Positions 8,061 to 23,288 of a stretch of 24,000 nucleotides of DNA are shown in pieces. Position numbers and translations under genes: made by a program. This stretch comes from an archaeon. GTDB taxonomy: Archaea; Nanobdellota; Nanobdellia; Pacearchaeales; GW2011-AR1. Location: NCBI GenBank assembly GCA_018697035.1, contig JABHSE010000004.1, positions 20,211 through 44,210 on the forward strand, written 5' to 3'. The stretch's first letter is position 1. Every line of letters starts with the position of its first letter. The notes beneath the pieces are model-generated. The model was not told the DNA's origin. It made no database searches and saw only the letters and a program-made list of their open reading frames with translations.

Positions 8061-9782
8061 CTATTTTTCTCCAACCTCAACCTCAACCTCATCCAAAGTA
8101 GCAATATCAGAAACCCTCCTATCCGGCCTCATTCTCAAAATCCTAGGAAACCTCAAAGCAAACCCACTAGAATTCGCCGGACTCCTCTGCACATCCTGAA
8201 AACGAACTGATACCACAACCTCAGGCCGAACCTCAACATGCCTCCCATCAACTTTCGTCACCAACTTCTCCAGCATATCCGTCATCTCCCCAAACGTCAA
8301 CTCGCTCCCAACTCCCAGCTCCGAACCCCCAACCTCCGCAGAAATCTCCTTCAACCCAGTAGAAACCTTACCAATCCCAAGCAACTCTCCATCATCCCGA
8401 CAAGAAACATCAAAACTCGTCAACCACCCAGCTCTCTTCCCAGTCCCCCACTCAGCACCCGTAATCACCAAATCAAAATCGCTATCCTCTGGCTTCAACT
8501 TCACAGCATGCCCAATCCTCGCACCAGGCTTATACGGAGCATCAAGCCGACGACCCATCAACCCCTCCTGATCATCCTCTAAAGCCGCATTATAAAACGC
8601 CTCAACCTCAGCCTCATCCGAAGTCACAATCTGCTTAGCCAAAACAATCTTCTTTTCCTCAACTCGAACAATCTCCTCGATCAATTTACGCCTCTTCTCA
8701 AAAGCAACATTAATCAAGCTATCCCCATCAAGAAACACAACATCAAAAACAACCAACTCAACTGGCAACTTCGCCCTCATCTCCGAGATCCCATGCTTCC
8801 TTCGAATTCTCTGACTAATCGCCTGAAAATCGGTATACTTCCCCGTCACAGAGTCGAACCCAACTGCCTCACAATCCAAAATAAAACTCTTCTCCGTAAC
8901 ATTAGATTCAACAGCTTCGACAATATCAGGAAACTGCTTAGTCACATTCTCCAAAGCTCTAGTAAAAATCTTAACCTCACCATTCTCATCTTTATTCACC
9001 ATCACCCGAAATCCATCATACTTATACTCAAACGCAGCCGGCCGACCAACAATCCGAAACGCATCCTCAACATTCGCAGCCTTAGGAAACAACATCACCT
9101 TCAACGGCTTCCCCGCAACCATCTTAATCTTCTCTAACTCATCCACACAAGCTTTCTCAAAAACCTCCGCAAAATCCGTCGCCTTATCATACGCCTCCTG
9201 AACAGCCCGCGCACAAACCTTCTTATCCTCCAAGCTCTCCGGTGCAAAACAATAAACCGCAATCGCATCCCGAAGTATACCAACCCCAACCCCAATCTTC
9301 AAGTCAGAAAGCACAGTCCTCACAATATACCTAGCCTCAATCGCCGAAGCCGAATGTAACAAATCAACAATATACCCAATCTTCAAGTCCACTGCCCCCG
9401 AACCTTCCACATCAACCAATTTTCGCAAATTCCCCATCACTTTCTCAACACTAAGCTTTCCCTCAAACAGACCCTGCTGCTTTTTTCCCTTCCCTAAAAC
9501 ACTCTCAGCAACCAAACCTAAATCCCCACTCTTCCGAAAACTCTCAACAACTTCATCCTCCGAAATCCCAGCAGCCCGACCCACAGCCTTAATCACCAAC
9601 TGATGCGAAATCCCAAGTTCTTTAGATTCATAATCCGCAAACAACTGTCCACGAAGCAAATAAACAAACTCAGGACTGTCTCTAATCTCCCCCAAAAAAG
9701 AAGCAAGAATCTCAGTCTTCTCAAGCCCACTCGCCGTCCCCTCAAGCGCAGTATAAACCTCACATATCCTCGAATAATCCAT
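8061..9782 (-). CDS. lig: ATP-dependent DNA ligase
   Basis: ORF 8061..9839 starts with GTG. I prefer the ATG at 9782 (MDYSRICEVY...). Adenylation motif FEYKYDGFRVMV, then EGLMGRRLDAPYKPGAR, with an OB-fold-type C-terminus. Confidence 0.9.
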   Translation of the reverse strand: MDYSRICEVYTALEGTASGLEKTEILASFLGEIRDSPEFVYLLRGQLFADYESKELGISHQLVIKAVGRAAGISEDEVVESFRKSGDLGLVAESVLGKGKKQQGLFEGKLSVEKVMGNLRKLVDVEGSGAVDLKIGYIVDLLHSASAIEARYIVRTVLSDLKIGVGVGILRDAIAVYCFAPESLEDKKVCARAVQEAYDKATDFAEVFEKACVDELEKIKMVAGKPLKVMLFPKAANVEDAFRIVGRPAAFEYKYDGFRVMVNKDENGEVKIFTRALENVTKQFPDIVEAVESNVTEKSFILDCEAVGFDSVTGKYTDFQAISQRIRRKHGISEMRAKLPVELVVFDVVFLDGDSLINVAFEKRRKLIEEIVRVEEKKIVLAKQIVTSDEAEVEAFYNAALEDDQEGLMGRRLDAPYKPGARIGHAVKLKPEDSDFDLVITGAEWGTGKRAGWLTSFDVSCRDDGELLGIGKVSTGLKEISAEVGGSELGVGSELTFGEMTDMLEKLVTKVDGRHVEVRPEVVVSVRFQDVQRSPANSSGFALRFPRILRMRPDRRVSDIATLDEVEVEVGEK

Positions 9783-9883
9783 AACATAACTAAGCAGTAT
9801 CCAATTAAATAACTTCCGCGCGCACGAAGCGCGCAACACTCAGACTCCCAACTCCTAGCGAAGCGTACACCAAACTCTTAACT

Positions 9884-9904
9884 ACAATTTCCAAAGGAAA
9901 TTGT
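9884..9904. promoter_or_regulatory. Perfect 9-bp inverted repeat (acaatttcc aaa ggaaattgt) between the divergent lig and trx genes
   Basis: Read directly from the sequence. It is centred about 58 nt upstream of the trx ATG and upstream of the trx TATA-like box. Confidence 0.4.
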
Positions 9905-9922
9905 TAACACCGCTCCCAAACC

Positions 9923-9932
9923 TTTATAAAAA
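9923..9932 (+). promoter_or_regulatory. TATA-like box for trx
   Basis: 'tttataaaaa' is centred about 25 nt upstream of the ATG at 9952, implying a leaderless or near-leaderless mRNA. Confidence 0.5.
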
Positions 9933-9951
9933 ATAATCAATTTAATCAACA

Positions 9952-10275
9952 ATGGAAATCAACGTAACCGACATAAACTTCCAAAAAGAAGTAATAAAAA
10001 AATCAAGTGAAACCCCAGTCCTAGTAGACTTCTGGGCTTCATGGTGCGGACCCTGCATGATGCTAGGCCCAACGCTAGAAAAAATCGCAAAAGAATACGA
10101 TGGAAAACTGATAGTAGCAAAAGCAGCAACTGACGAGAACGCAGATGCAGCATCCAAATTCGGAGTAATGTCAATCCCAGCAGTAAAACTTTTCAAAGAC
10201 GGCAAAGTCATAGACGAATTCGTCGGAGCCCAACCCGAAGCCACAATCAAACAATGGCTAGATCAAAAATTATAA
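9952..10275 (+). CDS. trxA: Thioredoxin
   Basis: 107 aa with the WCGPC active site (FWASWCGPCMMLGP) and a thioredoxin-fold pattern (...MSIPAVKLFKDGK...). Confidence 0.95.
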   Translation: MEINVTDINFQKEVIKKSSETPVLVDFWASWCGPCMMLGPTLEKIAKEYDGKLIVAKAATDENADAASKFGVMSIPAVKLFKDGKVIDEFVGAQPEATIKQWLDQKL

Positions 10276-10314
10276 TTATAAAAAATCCGTGCAATCCGCG
10301 AAATCCGTGAGCAA

Positions 10315-11034
10315 TTATTCCCCTTCCCCAAAACAAACATCTCGCAAAACCTTCTTCCCAACAAACTCATCGTTTTCCTGAAACCGGTCCATCTCAATCC
10401 ACCGAAACCCATCCCCCTTCGCAATCTCATTAGGAGCTAAAGCACTCGGAAACGCCTTCAACCCGGCAACATCCTCCTCACTAATCCAATGATTCTCCCC
10501 CTCCCTAGTCTTCTCAATTAACTCCCCACGAGGATTCGTAGCCAAGATAACAAACATTTGATGATTATAACTAAGCTTCCCATTATTATAAGTCTTATAA
10601 GAACAAAGTCCCTTCAGCTCCAAATCACAAACCAACCCACTCTCCTCCATCAACTCCGCAGCCGCAGCCTCATAAATATACTGATCAAACTTCAACTTCC
10701 CAGCAATCGAACCCCAATAACTATAAAACGGCTCCTTCTTTCTCTCACACATCAAAAACTTTTTCTTCACATCATCATAAACGACAATAACAACACAAAC
10801 CAAAGGAGCCCTAGCTTTCTCCCCACTCTCACCCTCGAGATAGGCACAATACTTTTTCCCCTCACTACTTAAACAATATACTTCTTTTACTTTATCCACC
10901 AACCTATCCTCAACCAAAACCTTCAAATGATAAGCAAACAAATTACTCGCTCCAACATTACCCCACAACTCATTAAAACCCATCTCCCGCTTATGCATCA
11001 ACTTCCGCAAAATCTCCCGCCGTTCTTTCTTCAT
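10315..11034 (-). CDS. Winged-helix (ArsR-like) plus Nudix-domain fusion protein
   Basis: N-terminus RREILRKLMHKREMGFNELWGNVGASNLFAYHLKVLVEDRLV is wHTH-like. The Nudix box GKLKFDQYIYEAAAAELMEESGL compares with the consensus GX5EX7REUXEEXGU. The first E is Q and the R is A, while the EUXEEXGU part is intact. Confidence 0.75.
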   Translation of the reverse strand: MKKERREILRKLMHKREMGFNELWGNVGASNLFAYHLKVLVEDRLVDKVKEVYCLSSEGKKYCAYLEGESGEKARAPLVCVVIVVYDDVKKKFLMCERKKEPFYSYWGSIAGKLKFDQYIYEAAAAELMEESGLVCDLELKGLCSYKTYNNGKLSYNHQMFVILATNPRGELIEKTREGENHWISEEDVAGLKAFPSALAPNEIAKGDGFRWIEMDRFQENDEFVGKKVLRDVCFGEGE

Positions 11035-11107
11035 GTCAAAATAATAAAATCAAACTATATAAAATACTATCTCAAAAACATTTGAGCACTCCAATCTCTC
11101 AAGTAGA

Positions 11108-11179
11108 AAAGTCATAGACGAATTCGTCGGCGCACAACCAGAAGCCACAATCAAACAATGGCTAGATCAGAAGTTATAA
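11108..11179 (+). pseudogene. Detached second copy of the last 23 codons plus stop of thioredoxin
   Basis: 72 nt align with 10204-10275 without gaps. There are 5 differences (gga/ggc, gcc/gca, ccc/cca, caa/cag, aaa/aag), all at synonymous third positions. Both copies translate to KVIDEFVGAQPEATIKQWLDQKL*. Upstream of 11108 the homology decays, with an in-frame-breaking deletion and a tag. Confidence 0.9.
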
Positions 11180-11476
11180 AAAAATTCTATCAAGATAAAA
11201 GAGATAGTAGACGACTACAAATACTCCAATAAGTCCAATTGTAACAATTGCGATCCAATAGAGAGGAAAAATAAGTATCCTGAGAAAAAGGGGTACATTA
11301 AATTTTTTAAAAAAAGTCTCTATCTCAAGATGTCTCCTAATGTCAAAAACAACCAACCCATAAATTACTGAAATAAATAATGCACTAGTTAGTTCTCTAG
11401 AGAAAGTTAAAGCAAAGTATTCTTGTAATGTTTGTGTAGTTTGATTAACACAGTTGAGACAGATTGTGCCGTTCAT
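11174..11476 (-). CDS. Hypothetical membrane protein (100 aa, about 3 TM)
   Basis: ORF from the track with the ATG at 11476. It has hydrophobic segments. Its last two codons are read from the antisense of the trx fragment. Confidence 0.5.
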   Translation of the reverse strand: MNGTICLNCVNQTTQTLQEYFALTFSRELTSALFISVIYGLVVFDIRRHLEIETFFKKFNVPLFLRILIFPLYWIAIVTIGLIGVFVVVYYLFYLDRIFL

Positions 11477-11537
11477 AAAAAATCAAACAAATATTACTTT
11501 TTAAAAAAACACCATACTCCAAACTATATATTAGAAT

Positions 11538-12107
11538 CTAATTCCCTCTTCGCCTATTCGCCCTCAAACTAGGAAACGCCTTAGGAACACTCTCTCGCCT
11601 ATTCCTCTGCTGTCCCCGAGCCTTCTTCCCACTCGAAGTCAAACCACGCAAAGCCCTCTTCTTAGGAGCCTTAACAAACGGACCTAATTGCTTATCAACC
11701 AAAATACCAGCCTCACTTCTATCAACCAAAATAACCTCGTAAAAATAATTCATCCCATCCTTACCAATCCAATAACTCCCCAAGACTTCCATATTAACAT
11801 ACTTCTTCTGGACACGACCCTCCGCAATCTCCTTATAATTCATCCTCAAATTCTTCCTAATATGCAACCTCTTAGTCCTCCTCGCCTTATTCGGCCTACT
11901 CCTATGATGCCCACCACGCTTAATCTTAACACGAACAACAACAATCCCTTTCTTCGCCTTATACCCCAAACTACGAGCCCTGTCCAATCTCAAAGGCTTC
12001 TCAACCTTAGTAATAGCCCCATCCTTTCTCCAATCAATCATACGCGCACGCAAAGTCAAAACATCCGGCTTTCTCCACGCCTCACGCAAATACTTCATTA
12101 AACCCAT
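11538..12107 (-). CDS. rpl15e: Ribosomal protein eL15 (L15e)
   Basis: MGLMKYLREAWRKP...RLDRARSLGYKAKKGIVVVRVKIKRGG...: highly basic and typical of L15e. A TATA-like 'aaactttaaaaagg' box lies about 27 nt upstream. Confidence 0.9.
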   Translation of the reverse strand: MGLMKYLREAWRKPDVLTLRARMIDWRKDGAITKVEKPLRLDRARSLGYKAKKGIVVVRVKIKRGGHHRSRPNKARRTKRLHIRKNLRMNYKEIAEGRVQKKYVNMEVLGSYWIGKDGMNYFYEVILVDRSEAGILVDKQLGPFVKAPKKRALRGLTSSGKKARGQQRNRRESVPKAFPSLRANRRRGN

Positions 12108-12322: not shown

Positions 12323-12414
12323 GTCCGTGGCGAACAATTTGCTCGAATTTTTATTGCAAAGCAATTATAAAAATTTTAGAGTGAATTGTGAGTAAAATCC
12401 GCGCAGCCTCATAT
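12323..12414 (+). repeat. Partial second copy of the tRNA-Ile 3' third, interrupted by a 65-nt palindromic module
   Basis: gtccgtgg (12323-12330) matches the tRNA variable/T-stem gtccgcgg (12273-12280). The module occupies 12331-12395. aaatccgcgcagcctcatat (12395-12414) is an exact copy of 12284-12303. Confidence 0.85.
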
Positions 12415-23197: not shown

Positions 23198-23288
23198 TGT
23201 CGGGGCGAACGATTTGCTCGAATTTTTATTGCGAAGCGATTAGAAATTTTTAGAGTGAATCGTGAGTAATTCAAATCCCCTCGAGACA
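23198..23288 (+). repeat. Partial second copy of the tRNA-Lys 3' third, interrupted by the same palindromic module (64 nt)
   Basis: tgtcgggg (23198-23205) matches the tRNA tgtcggggg (23111-23119). The module occupies 23206-23269. ttcaaatcccctcgag (23270-23285) is an exact copy of 23120-23135. The acceptor strand then degenerates (gaca versus ggcca). Confidence 0.85.

Follow-up and report, generated by a model that had tools for sequence, protein, structure and literature searches.

The tips of Rhs genes can be displaced via circular intermediates, and arrays of dissociated tips have been described (Jackson et al. 2009, PMC2935791). For the effectors of the type VI secretion system (T6SS), displacement via homology-facilitated illegitimate recombination has been proposed (Kirchberger et al. 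2017, PMC5361080). Moreover, archaea harbour integrated elements, which have attachment (att) sites of 29-69 bp in the Crenarchaeota (Krupovic et al. 2019, PMC6563490). Here, we describe a detached gene tip in a stretch of 24,000 nucleotides from an archaeal chromosome (contig JABHSE010000004.1, positions 20,211 to 44,210; hereafter the window). The 3' end of an intact thioredoxin gene (trx), which is called copy A, recurs downstream of the gene as a detached fragment, copy B. A gene for a protein with a winged helix-turn-helix (wHTH) and a Nudix domain is located between the copies, and copy B is followed by an orphan open reading frame (ORF) and the gene of the ribosomal protein L15e (Table 1). 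We consider it rather probable that copy B is the displaced tip of a homeologous trx allele and the scar of a recombination event with the DNA of a diverged relative. Homology-facilitated illegitimate recombination is reportedly known from experiments with naturally transformable bacteria, in which it usually comes with a deletion of recipient DNA.

Copies A and B form a direct repeat of 72 nt that aligns without gaps and is identical at 67 of the 72 positions. The five differences (GGA/GGC, GCC/GCA, CCC/CCA, CAA/CAG and AAA/AAG) all fall on third codon positions and are all synonymous; both copies translate to KVIDEFVGAQPEATIKQWLDQKL followed by the stop, with 23 identical residues. An earlier note on this DNA had placed the repeat in this way, and alignment bears out both the gap-free match and the five silent differences. 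Beyond the 72 nt, the flanks match no better than random sequences (15/60 positions upstream and 18/60 downstream). Distally, the repeat ends with the stop codon, and the abrupt loss of homology upstream of 11108 marks the junction, as had been suggested before. The 72 nt are the single repeated stretch, and the 832 nt separating the copies are unique. In the frame of copy B, a stop codon is located 16 codons upstream and is followed by no ATG, GTG or TTG, the sequence reading ...I*NTISKTFEHSNLSSR. Copy B is absent from the list of plus-strand ORFs; it is not an ORF and is currently under no coding selection.

A region of 1.7 kb was found to be 100% identical (99.94% in one case) in at least nine independent assemblies, which stem from several projects, were generated with MEGAHIT, with SPAdes or by the JGI and contain contigs of up to 546 kb. 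Therefore, the repeat is not an assembly artefact, a possibility that the earlier note had raised. Furthermore, the junction 11107/11108 lies in unique sequence, so that a k-mer chimera would have been unable to create it. The population is clonal, with 0-2 single-nucleotide polymorphisms per 10-17 kb.

The nature of the five differences is informative about the history of copy B. About 20-27% of the random single-base changes in the 72-nt stretch are synonymous. The probability that five out of five changes are synonymous is 0.0003-0.0016 when all of them fall on a neutral copy and 0.004-0.015 when only copy B evolves neutrally and copy A is under constraint. The latter range follows from P = (2S/(2S+N))^5 = 0.004, where S and N stand for the synonymous and nonsynonymous sites, and reaches 0.015 with a strong transition bias; a previous estimate of about 1% was of the right order or even conservative. 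Counting according to Nei and Gojobori over the 23 codons (S=14, N=55) yields synonymous and nonsynonymous differences per site of pS=0.357 and pN=0, respectively. At a pS of 0.36, a neutral copy B should have collected about ten nonsynonymous changes, and none was observed. Duplication followed by decay is rejected for copy B. Since copy B has no start codon and does not form an ORF, the silent-only pattern must be historical and date from the time when the sequence was inside a working trx. The view that copy B evolved in a functional trx allele, which had been put forward on the basis of the five differences, is supported by these values and by the dead frame, and the repeat pairs of the related locus L093 (see below) carry the same signature with more power. 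The identity of synonymous codons is not raised at the trx tip among 17 orthologues (0.566 for codons 84-108 vs. 0.597 for codons 1-83); therefore, a hidden RNA or att constraint is not indicated.

One strain variant hints at recombination between the two copies. A contig of 579 bp (L001; ERZ4201002), which corresponds to window positions 9726-10304, differs from the window at two bases only. At the last two of the five discriminating sites, its copy A has the bases of copy B, and it then continues into copy A's own downstream flank, a combination that no k-mer chimera could yield. Since the population is otherwise clonal, L001 looks as if a short stretch of copy A had undergone gene conversion by copy B. 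Another contig (L231; ERZ4200949, 2.2x coverage) tracks window positions 12272-10852 from L15e past the orphan ORF and copy B into the wHTH-coding part of the Nudix gene and then switches to unrelated DNA with a repetitive 106-aa ORF and an apparent tRNA gene. This contig represents either a rearranged strain or a low-coverage chimera.

Similar scars recur in related genomes. The comparison set comprised 80 loci around homologues of the ligase gene located next to trx, with one genome per species, and the neighbouring genes were mapped (individual loci carry L numbers). Detached trx tips downstream of an intact trx were found in 4/34 Pacearchaeota trx loci (the window, L016, L042 and L093/94) compared with 0/75 tail duplicates in unrelated trx loci among the matches listed (Fisher p=0.008). 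The control loci were obtained by a metagenome scan with a trx alignment and generic WCGPC patterns, and one relative (L145) was among the matches listed. In L016, a tip of 67 nt lies about 660 nt downstream of trx, and the enclosed DNA contains a wHTH ORF together with a small ORF. Two tips, 45 and 48 nt long, are present in L042, and the nearer one encloses an RHH/PemK toxin-antitoxin pair. L093/L094 carry a tip of 117 nt that is located 208 nt downstream of trx; the L093 pair has a pS of 0.62, which means that the silent sites are saturated, and a pN of 0.13. Every trx-tip repeat terminates at the stop codon, as would be predicted if alleles from genomes with different neighbours were joined. 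The 5' breakpoints are abrupt and vary by lineage (codons 69, 84, 86, 91 and 93); therefore, the junctions arose independently, and there is no fixed core. For L042, the unoccupied state is also available: the distal L042 tip and the end of the L021 trx are collinear and share TGA as their stop, and L021 is the empty site for the toxin-antitoxin insertion.

Scars of this type are also present at other conserved genes of the neighbourhood. A 3' fragment of L15e lies behind an inserted MarC gene (L093 3911-4060; pS 0.60, pN 0.19, in-frame stop), and a second one has a 1-nt deletion (L063 4931-4980). Ligase 5' fragments were identified in L063 (4227-4336, 110 nt, beginning exactly at the ATG) and L018 (2156-2279, 124 nt); they are 98-100% identical to the intact gene and are located 1.7-1.9 kb upstream of it. 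Decay is visible in the trx tip of L016 and the L15e tip of L093, where nonsynonymous changes and an in-frame stop have appeared. For the spacers and inserts of L093, L042 and L016, no homologues were found in the other loci. Since scars occur at the ends of trx, L15e and ligase in several genomes, this neighbourhood can be regarded as a recombination hot spot.

Some further observations were made at the repeats and in the related loci. A perfect 12-nt palindrome, GACGAATTCGTC, occurs in both copies (10213-10224 and 11117-11128), where it covers the codons D-E-F-V and has an EcoRI-type site in its centre. It is located 9 nt from the breakpoint of the window and 5 nt from that of L016, and it may either have arisen by chance from the codons used or be a site at which breaks are preferred. 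The RHH/PemK (MazF-like) pair abuts the trx stop with zero gap in L042 (4529-5075) and in L095 (1408-1954); the proteins of the two loci are 82% and 71% identical, and the pair is enclosed by trx tips only in L042. Moreover, L042 contains at positions 1473-1583 a lone 111-nt piece of an archaeal 23S rRNA (model positions 1157-1270) next to a tRNA gene and local repeats and far from any rRNA operon, which may be another relic of an illegitimate insertion.

The gene order in the relatives reveals what is out of place in the window. The arrangement in which L15e and trx converge and ligase and TBP follow is kept in about 30 of the 80 loci, and the trx orthologues in these syntenic neighbourhoods of Pacearchaeota are 59-89% identical. 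The gap between the ends of L15e and trx is hypervariable: it measures 17 nt in L022, 38 nt in L023 and up to 2324 nt in L042, and in several loci it has about 219 nt, which correspond to a 65-aa PspC gene. Homologues of the wHTH-Nudix protein in relatives are 61-81% identical. In the closest relatives (L091/92, L093/94 and L095), the Nudix gene is convergent to trx, as in the window, and it is always preceded by PspC. For instance, SerHyd-PspC-Nudix faces trx-ligase in L091/92 and PspC-Nudix-RHH-PemK faces trx in L095, both without a duplication of the window type, and in L093/94 PspC-Nudix faces the genome's own trx tip. L097 has the order L15e-PspC-Nudix, and the Nudix gene of L096 is likewise preceded by PspC. 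PspC was not found in the window, and copy B and the orphan ORF sit at its position. Judging from this synteny, it is these two and not the Nudix gene that are misplaced in the window. The order in the window is a mosaic, in which Nudix-trx-ligase as in L091 and L15e-X-trx as in L012 and L022 are joined at 11107/11108. The earlier note had proposed that recombination or integration either brought or trapped the intervening DNA. Because the Nudix gene is the usual neighbour of trx in the relatives, "trapped" fits better than "brought"; recombination also fits, whereas the 832 bp are not evident cargo and no integrative element was found. A breakpoint scan of L15e showed that the homology to relatives stops at the stop codon and gave no mosaic signal.

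How may the scar have been formed? A diverged relative with a different gene order in the variable islet between L15e and trx would have exchanged DNA with the chromosome of the Pacearchaeote. One side of the exchange would have proceeded via homology in a conserved flanking gene and the other one by an illegitimate join at 11107/11108, where microhomology could not be shown. An equivalent route would be a circle of about 0.9 kb consisting of the trx tip and the Nudix cassette, which integrates by a single crossover inside the trx tip (Campbell-type). By either route, the other tip would have been pushed 904 bp away and would have lost its start. The trx gene would have stayed intact because the incoming or the resident DNA supplied a complete tip, and the tips would differ only silently because each of them evolved in the working trx of a separate lineage and the event was too recent for decay. 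The direct repeats could still recombine with each other, and a dedicated integrase would not be needed. The route, like the choice of the foreign tip, is what we infer from the directly visible repeat, its silent-only divergence, the dead copy B, the repeated finding of such scars, the boundary at the stop codon and the synteny. Two scenarios are conceivable. In the first one, an L15e-ORF-trx' block of the relative would have replaced PspC, with the anchor in L15e. In the second one, a trx-Nudix block of the relative would have entered a genome with the order L15e-ORF-trx, either anchored in trx/ligase or as the circle of about 0.9 kb. Given the synteny, the first scenario would require fewer steps and appears only slightly more likely. 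Homeologous chromosomal recombination is a better fit than an integrase with a fixed core because the breakpoints vary, several gene ends including 5' ends are involved and the repeats are bounded by starts or stops.

Several points weigh against the origin of copy B from a displaced homeologous allele. The empty site that the earlier note had suggested to look for, in which trx is directly followed by the ORF at 11174-11476, was not found, and all of the contigs read with the orphan ORF (23/23) also carry the Nudix gene. Neither a donor lineage nor a circular form was found; the orphan ORF matches only itself among 5.8 billion proteins and has no DNA or tblastx match in the relatives. A second proposed comparison, namely which of the two 3' ends matches the relatives, was performed and gave a mixed picture as to the ancestry of the copies, since the relatives mix A and B states at the five sites. 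The window's own case consists of five substitutions only, plus the analogy to the relatives. All five breakpoints are located in the last 39 of the 107 codons (P ~0.006 if uniform), a clustering that hints at a preferred site and that a survival bias against long repeats could explain. In the 56 islet ORFs of the relatives, no integrase was found among the best 25 of 69 Pfam families, a scope that also has to be counted here. Finally, we know of no demonstration of homology-facilitated illegitimate recombination or Campbell-type integration in DPANN archaea.

The remnant of an integrase-mediated integration is the alternative that survives best, and we regard it as unlikely. Copies A and B would then be attL and attR, and the integrase and most of the element would have been lost, or the cassette would be mobilised in trans. 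This topology is known for archaeal elements that target the 3'-distal regions of tRNA and protein genes, and 72 nt is near the size range of the crenarchaeal att sites (PMC6563490). Moreover, the same gene end was struck in four lineages, the two-tip array of L042 resembles re-used att sites and PemK/RHH toxin-antitoxin cargo abuts the trx stop in two lineages. The clustering of the breakpoints in the last third of trx and the palindrome GACGAATTCGTC inside the repeat would also agree with an att site. However, an integrase, recombinase or transposase was detected neither in the 24-kb window nor among the best 25 of 69 families of the islet ORFs mentioned above. The 5' edges of the repeats differ each time and share no common core, like scars occur at the ends of L15e and ligase, and the wHTH-Nudix gene is a syntenic trx neighbour and not element-like cargo. 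Terminal inverted repeats or transposon signatures were not found at the ends of the insert. The trx tip is also on no viral contig: a degenerate trx-tip probe matched none of them, and the trx-like sequences of viral contigs do not exceed 48% identity and are unrelated. An exact 36-nt probe over the junction of copy B and the orphan ORF had no match in a metagenome contig collection, which lacks this species.

The repeat could also have arisen in situ, either by tandem duplication or as a long target-site duplication at a staggered break, with selection on copy A, few changes in copy B and gene conversion between the two. The analogous repeats of L018 (124 nt) and L063 (110 nt) are 98-100% identical, as expected for a fresh local duplication, and L001 shows conversion between A and B, with two of the five differences being polymorphic in copy A. 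Nevertheless, an origin in situ is quite improbable, given the probability of 0.004-0.015 for five synonymous changes out of five and the ten or so missing nonsynonymous changes on copy B. Gene conversion would wipe silent and non-silent differences equally, and a staggered cut has no cause to end at the stop codon in 5/5 cases. The L093 pairs are too silent-diverged for a local origin with a conserved peptide. Furthermore, the 72 nt alone are repeated and not the whole unit, and neither terminal inverted repeats nor a transposase are present. As to specific versions, the unique 832 nt between the copies speak against a tandem segmental duplication, and the 72-nt length of the repeat with a pS of 0.36 and the lack of inverted repeats and a transposase speak against a transposon target-site duplication.

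It is still more improbable that copy B has been kept for a function of its own, be it as a 3' untranslated region or terminator of the orphan ORF that is antisense to the tip of the trx mRNA, or as an excision handle of the Nudix gene. The stop of the orphan ORF indeed lies inside copy B, and transcription of the ORF would continue into the trx tip in antisense direction. Over many samples, the arrangement is invariable, with 100% conservation; because the population is clonal, this conservation is uninformative with regard to constraint. Selection at the nucleotide level does not predict differences that are confined to third positions, no significant structure or terminator was detected at copy B, and the L016 trx tip and the L093 L15e tip are decaying. 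A chimera of two co-occurring strains at the trx tip, created during assembly or binning, can practically be dismissed: low-coverage contigs do end at the repeat (29 nt behind trx for L001, inside copy A for L228), and L231, with a coverage of 2.2x, departs from the window within the Nudix gene, but both copies are identical in the nine or more assemblies from different projects and assemblers, with contigs of 426-546 kb, and k-mer chimeras are impossible at the unique junction.

Returning to displacement by homeologous recombination, a more far-reaching version of it is doubtful in our view. The cassettes found at these gene ends (wHTH-Nudix, wHTH plus small ORF and RHH-PemK) might use a copied host gene tip as a "homology handle". 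A cassette with two tips could in principle be excised as a circle or moved as a linear piece by the homologous recombination of the host. If this is true, cassettes could move into the trx of any related genome without an integrase, guided by gene ends, and the L15e-trx-ligase neighbourhood would be a shared exchange site.

The features of the locus are summarised in Table 1. The nearest solved structure to the wHTH-Nudix protein is the MutT protein 3fk9. The promoter block of its gene is near-identical in the window, L091, L093 and L095, the proteins of which are 61-79% identical, and this similarity ends at 11087. The coordinates of the TATA box and the palindrome in this block were read by eye from the window sequence; the palindrome probably serves the winged-helix domain as an operator for autoregulation. 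The adjacent filler is homologous neither to relatives nor to the region that precedes copy A. Pfam, NCBIfam and PADLOC gave no match for the orphan ORF, which is also unusual among the minus-strand genes of the window in its GC content and GC skew.

Table 1 Features of the trx locus (positions counted from the first letter of the window)
Feature	Position	Strand	Remarks
Intact trx	9952..10275	+	107 aa, WCGPC; Pfam PF00085, E=6e-30
Repeat copy A	10204..10275	+	Codons 84-107 + stop of intact trx
Convergent spacer, trx stop to Nudix stop	10276..10314		Relatives have only 4-10 nt
wHTH (DUF7347) + NUDIX gene	10315..11034	-	239 aa; PF00293 1.8e-10, PF24038 9e-6
Nudix promoter block	11035..11087	-	TATA box 11055-11064; 16-nt palindrome CTCAAAAACATTTGAG 11071-11086
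Filler between promoter block and copy B	11088..11107		20 nt; junction 11107/11108
Repeat copy B, detached trx tip	11108..11179	+	Codons 84-107 + stop; no start codon
Orphan 100-aa hydrophobic ORF	11174..11476	-	Stop (TTA on +) overlaps last sense codon of copy B
Ribosomal protein L15e gene	11538..12107	-	PF00827, 2e-54; conserved far flank of the variable islet

The window is part of a gene-dense archaeal chromosome that codes for an ATP-dependent DNA ligase, TBP, L15e, NAC, MetRS and SerRS. Its ligase is 76% identical to the ligases of metagenome-assembled genomes labelled as Pacearchaeota, Woesearchaeota or Nanoarchaeota, and the host is a Pacearchaeota/Woesearchaeota (DPANN) archaeon. The GC skew of the plus strand ranges from -0.4 to -0.6 wherever the genes are on the minus strand, and the AT skew is strongly positive over plus-strand genes. 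The coding strands of the window are very purine-rich, and the region of the orphan ORF (11180-11480) deviates from this. Several public gene calls miss trx and annotate an antisense ORF of 100-102 aa (9942-10250, minus strand) or a truncation of 72 aa instead, and for this reason the exact trx protein is indexed on only three contigs. The convergent spacer is filled with three ATCCGYG motifs with 9-nt spacing (10283-10310), and no significant RNA structure was detected in it. Likewise, scans for RNA structures, terminators and promoters around both copies gave nothing significant, and Rfam identified only tRNAs in the window. An element of about 85 nt occurs in two copies (12326-12410 and 23201-23285), which are 86-89% identical and follow tRNA-Ile and tRNA-Lys at a distance of 25-60 nt. 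The fold of the element is a long hairpin with two base pairs that are maintained by two-sided changes. Rfam gave no credible match for it, and it may represent a small RNA that has not been described yet or a terminator acting in both directions.

The new aspect of this work is a modest one, namely that one small DPANN neighbourhood carries such scars repeatedly, at the ends of its conserved housekeeping genes. Where diverged lineages of uncultivable DPANN archaea exchange DNA, the scars are a concrete footprint that can be dated; the routes of gene flow in these organisms have largely been inferred. The distribution of the scars suggests that conserved gene ends, and not dedicated integrases, guide much of the local turnover of gene order. 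For practical purposes, displaced tips can be used as markers of recent insertions in metagenome-assembled genomes, and they explain why low-coverage assemblies break at the trx locus. The biology of the thioredoxin and of the Nudix protein is unaffected by the finding.

The locus shares features with each of the described systems. Like elements flanked by att sites, it has direct repeats of tens of bp around an insert, a restored 3' end of the target gene and tandem re-use. It differs from them in that no integrase was found in the window, the edges of the repeats vary, the enclosed gene is syntenic and scars occur at 5' ends, too. With homology-facilitated illegitimate recombination it would have in common one homologous anchor combined with one illegitimate joint beside a conserved gene. 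In contrast to the bacterial process, the end of the anchor is duplicated here, and the host is an uncultured archaeon. The likeness to the tip displacement in Rhs, contact-dependent inhibition (CDI) and T6SS loci extends to several details. Behind an intact gene, there are one or more orphan 3' fragments that point in its direction, as also in L016, L042 and L093; the orphan tip has no start, the tips have diverged silently with the protein being conserved and an abrupt breakpoint lies opposite a gene boundary. In those systems, acquired DNA provided a new 3' end together with downstream genes, and arrays were formed, to which L042 may be compared. Unlike Rhs, CDI and T6SS tips, the tip described here belongs to a housekeeping trx of a DPANN archaeon. 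Nothing was diversified because the old and the new trx tips encode an identical peptide, and the displaced tip is a by-product of a change in gene order rather than a switch of toxin and immunity.

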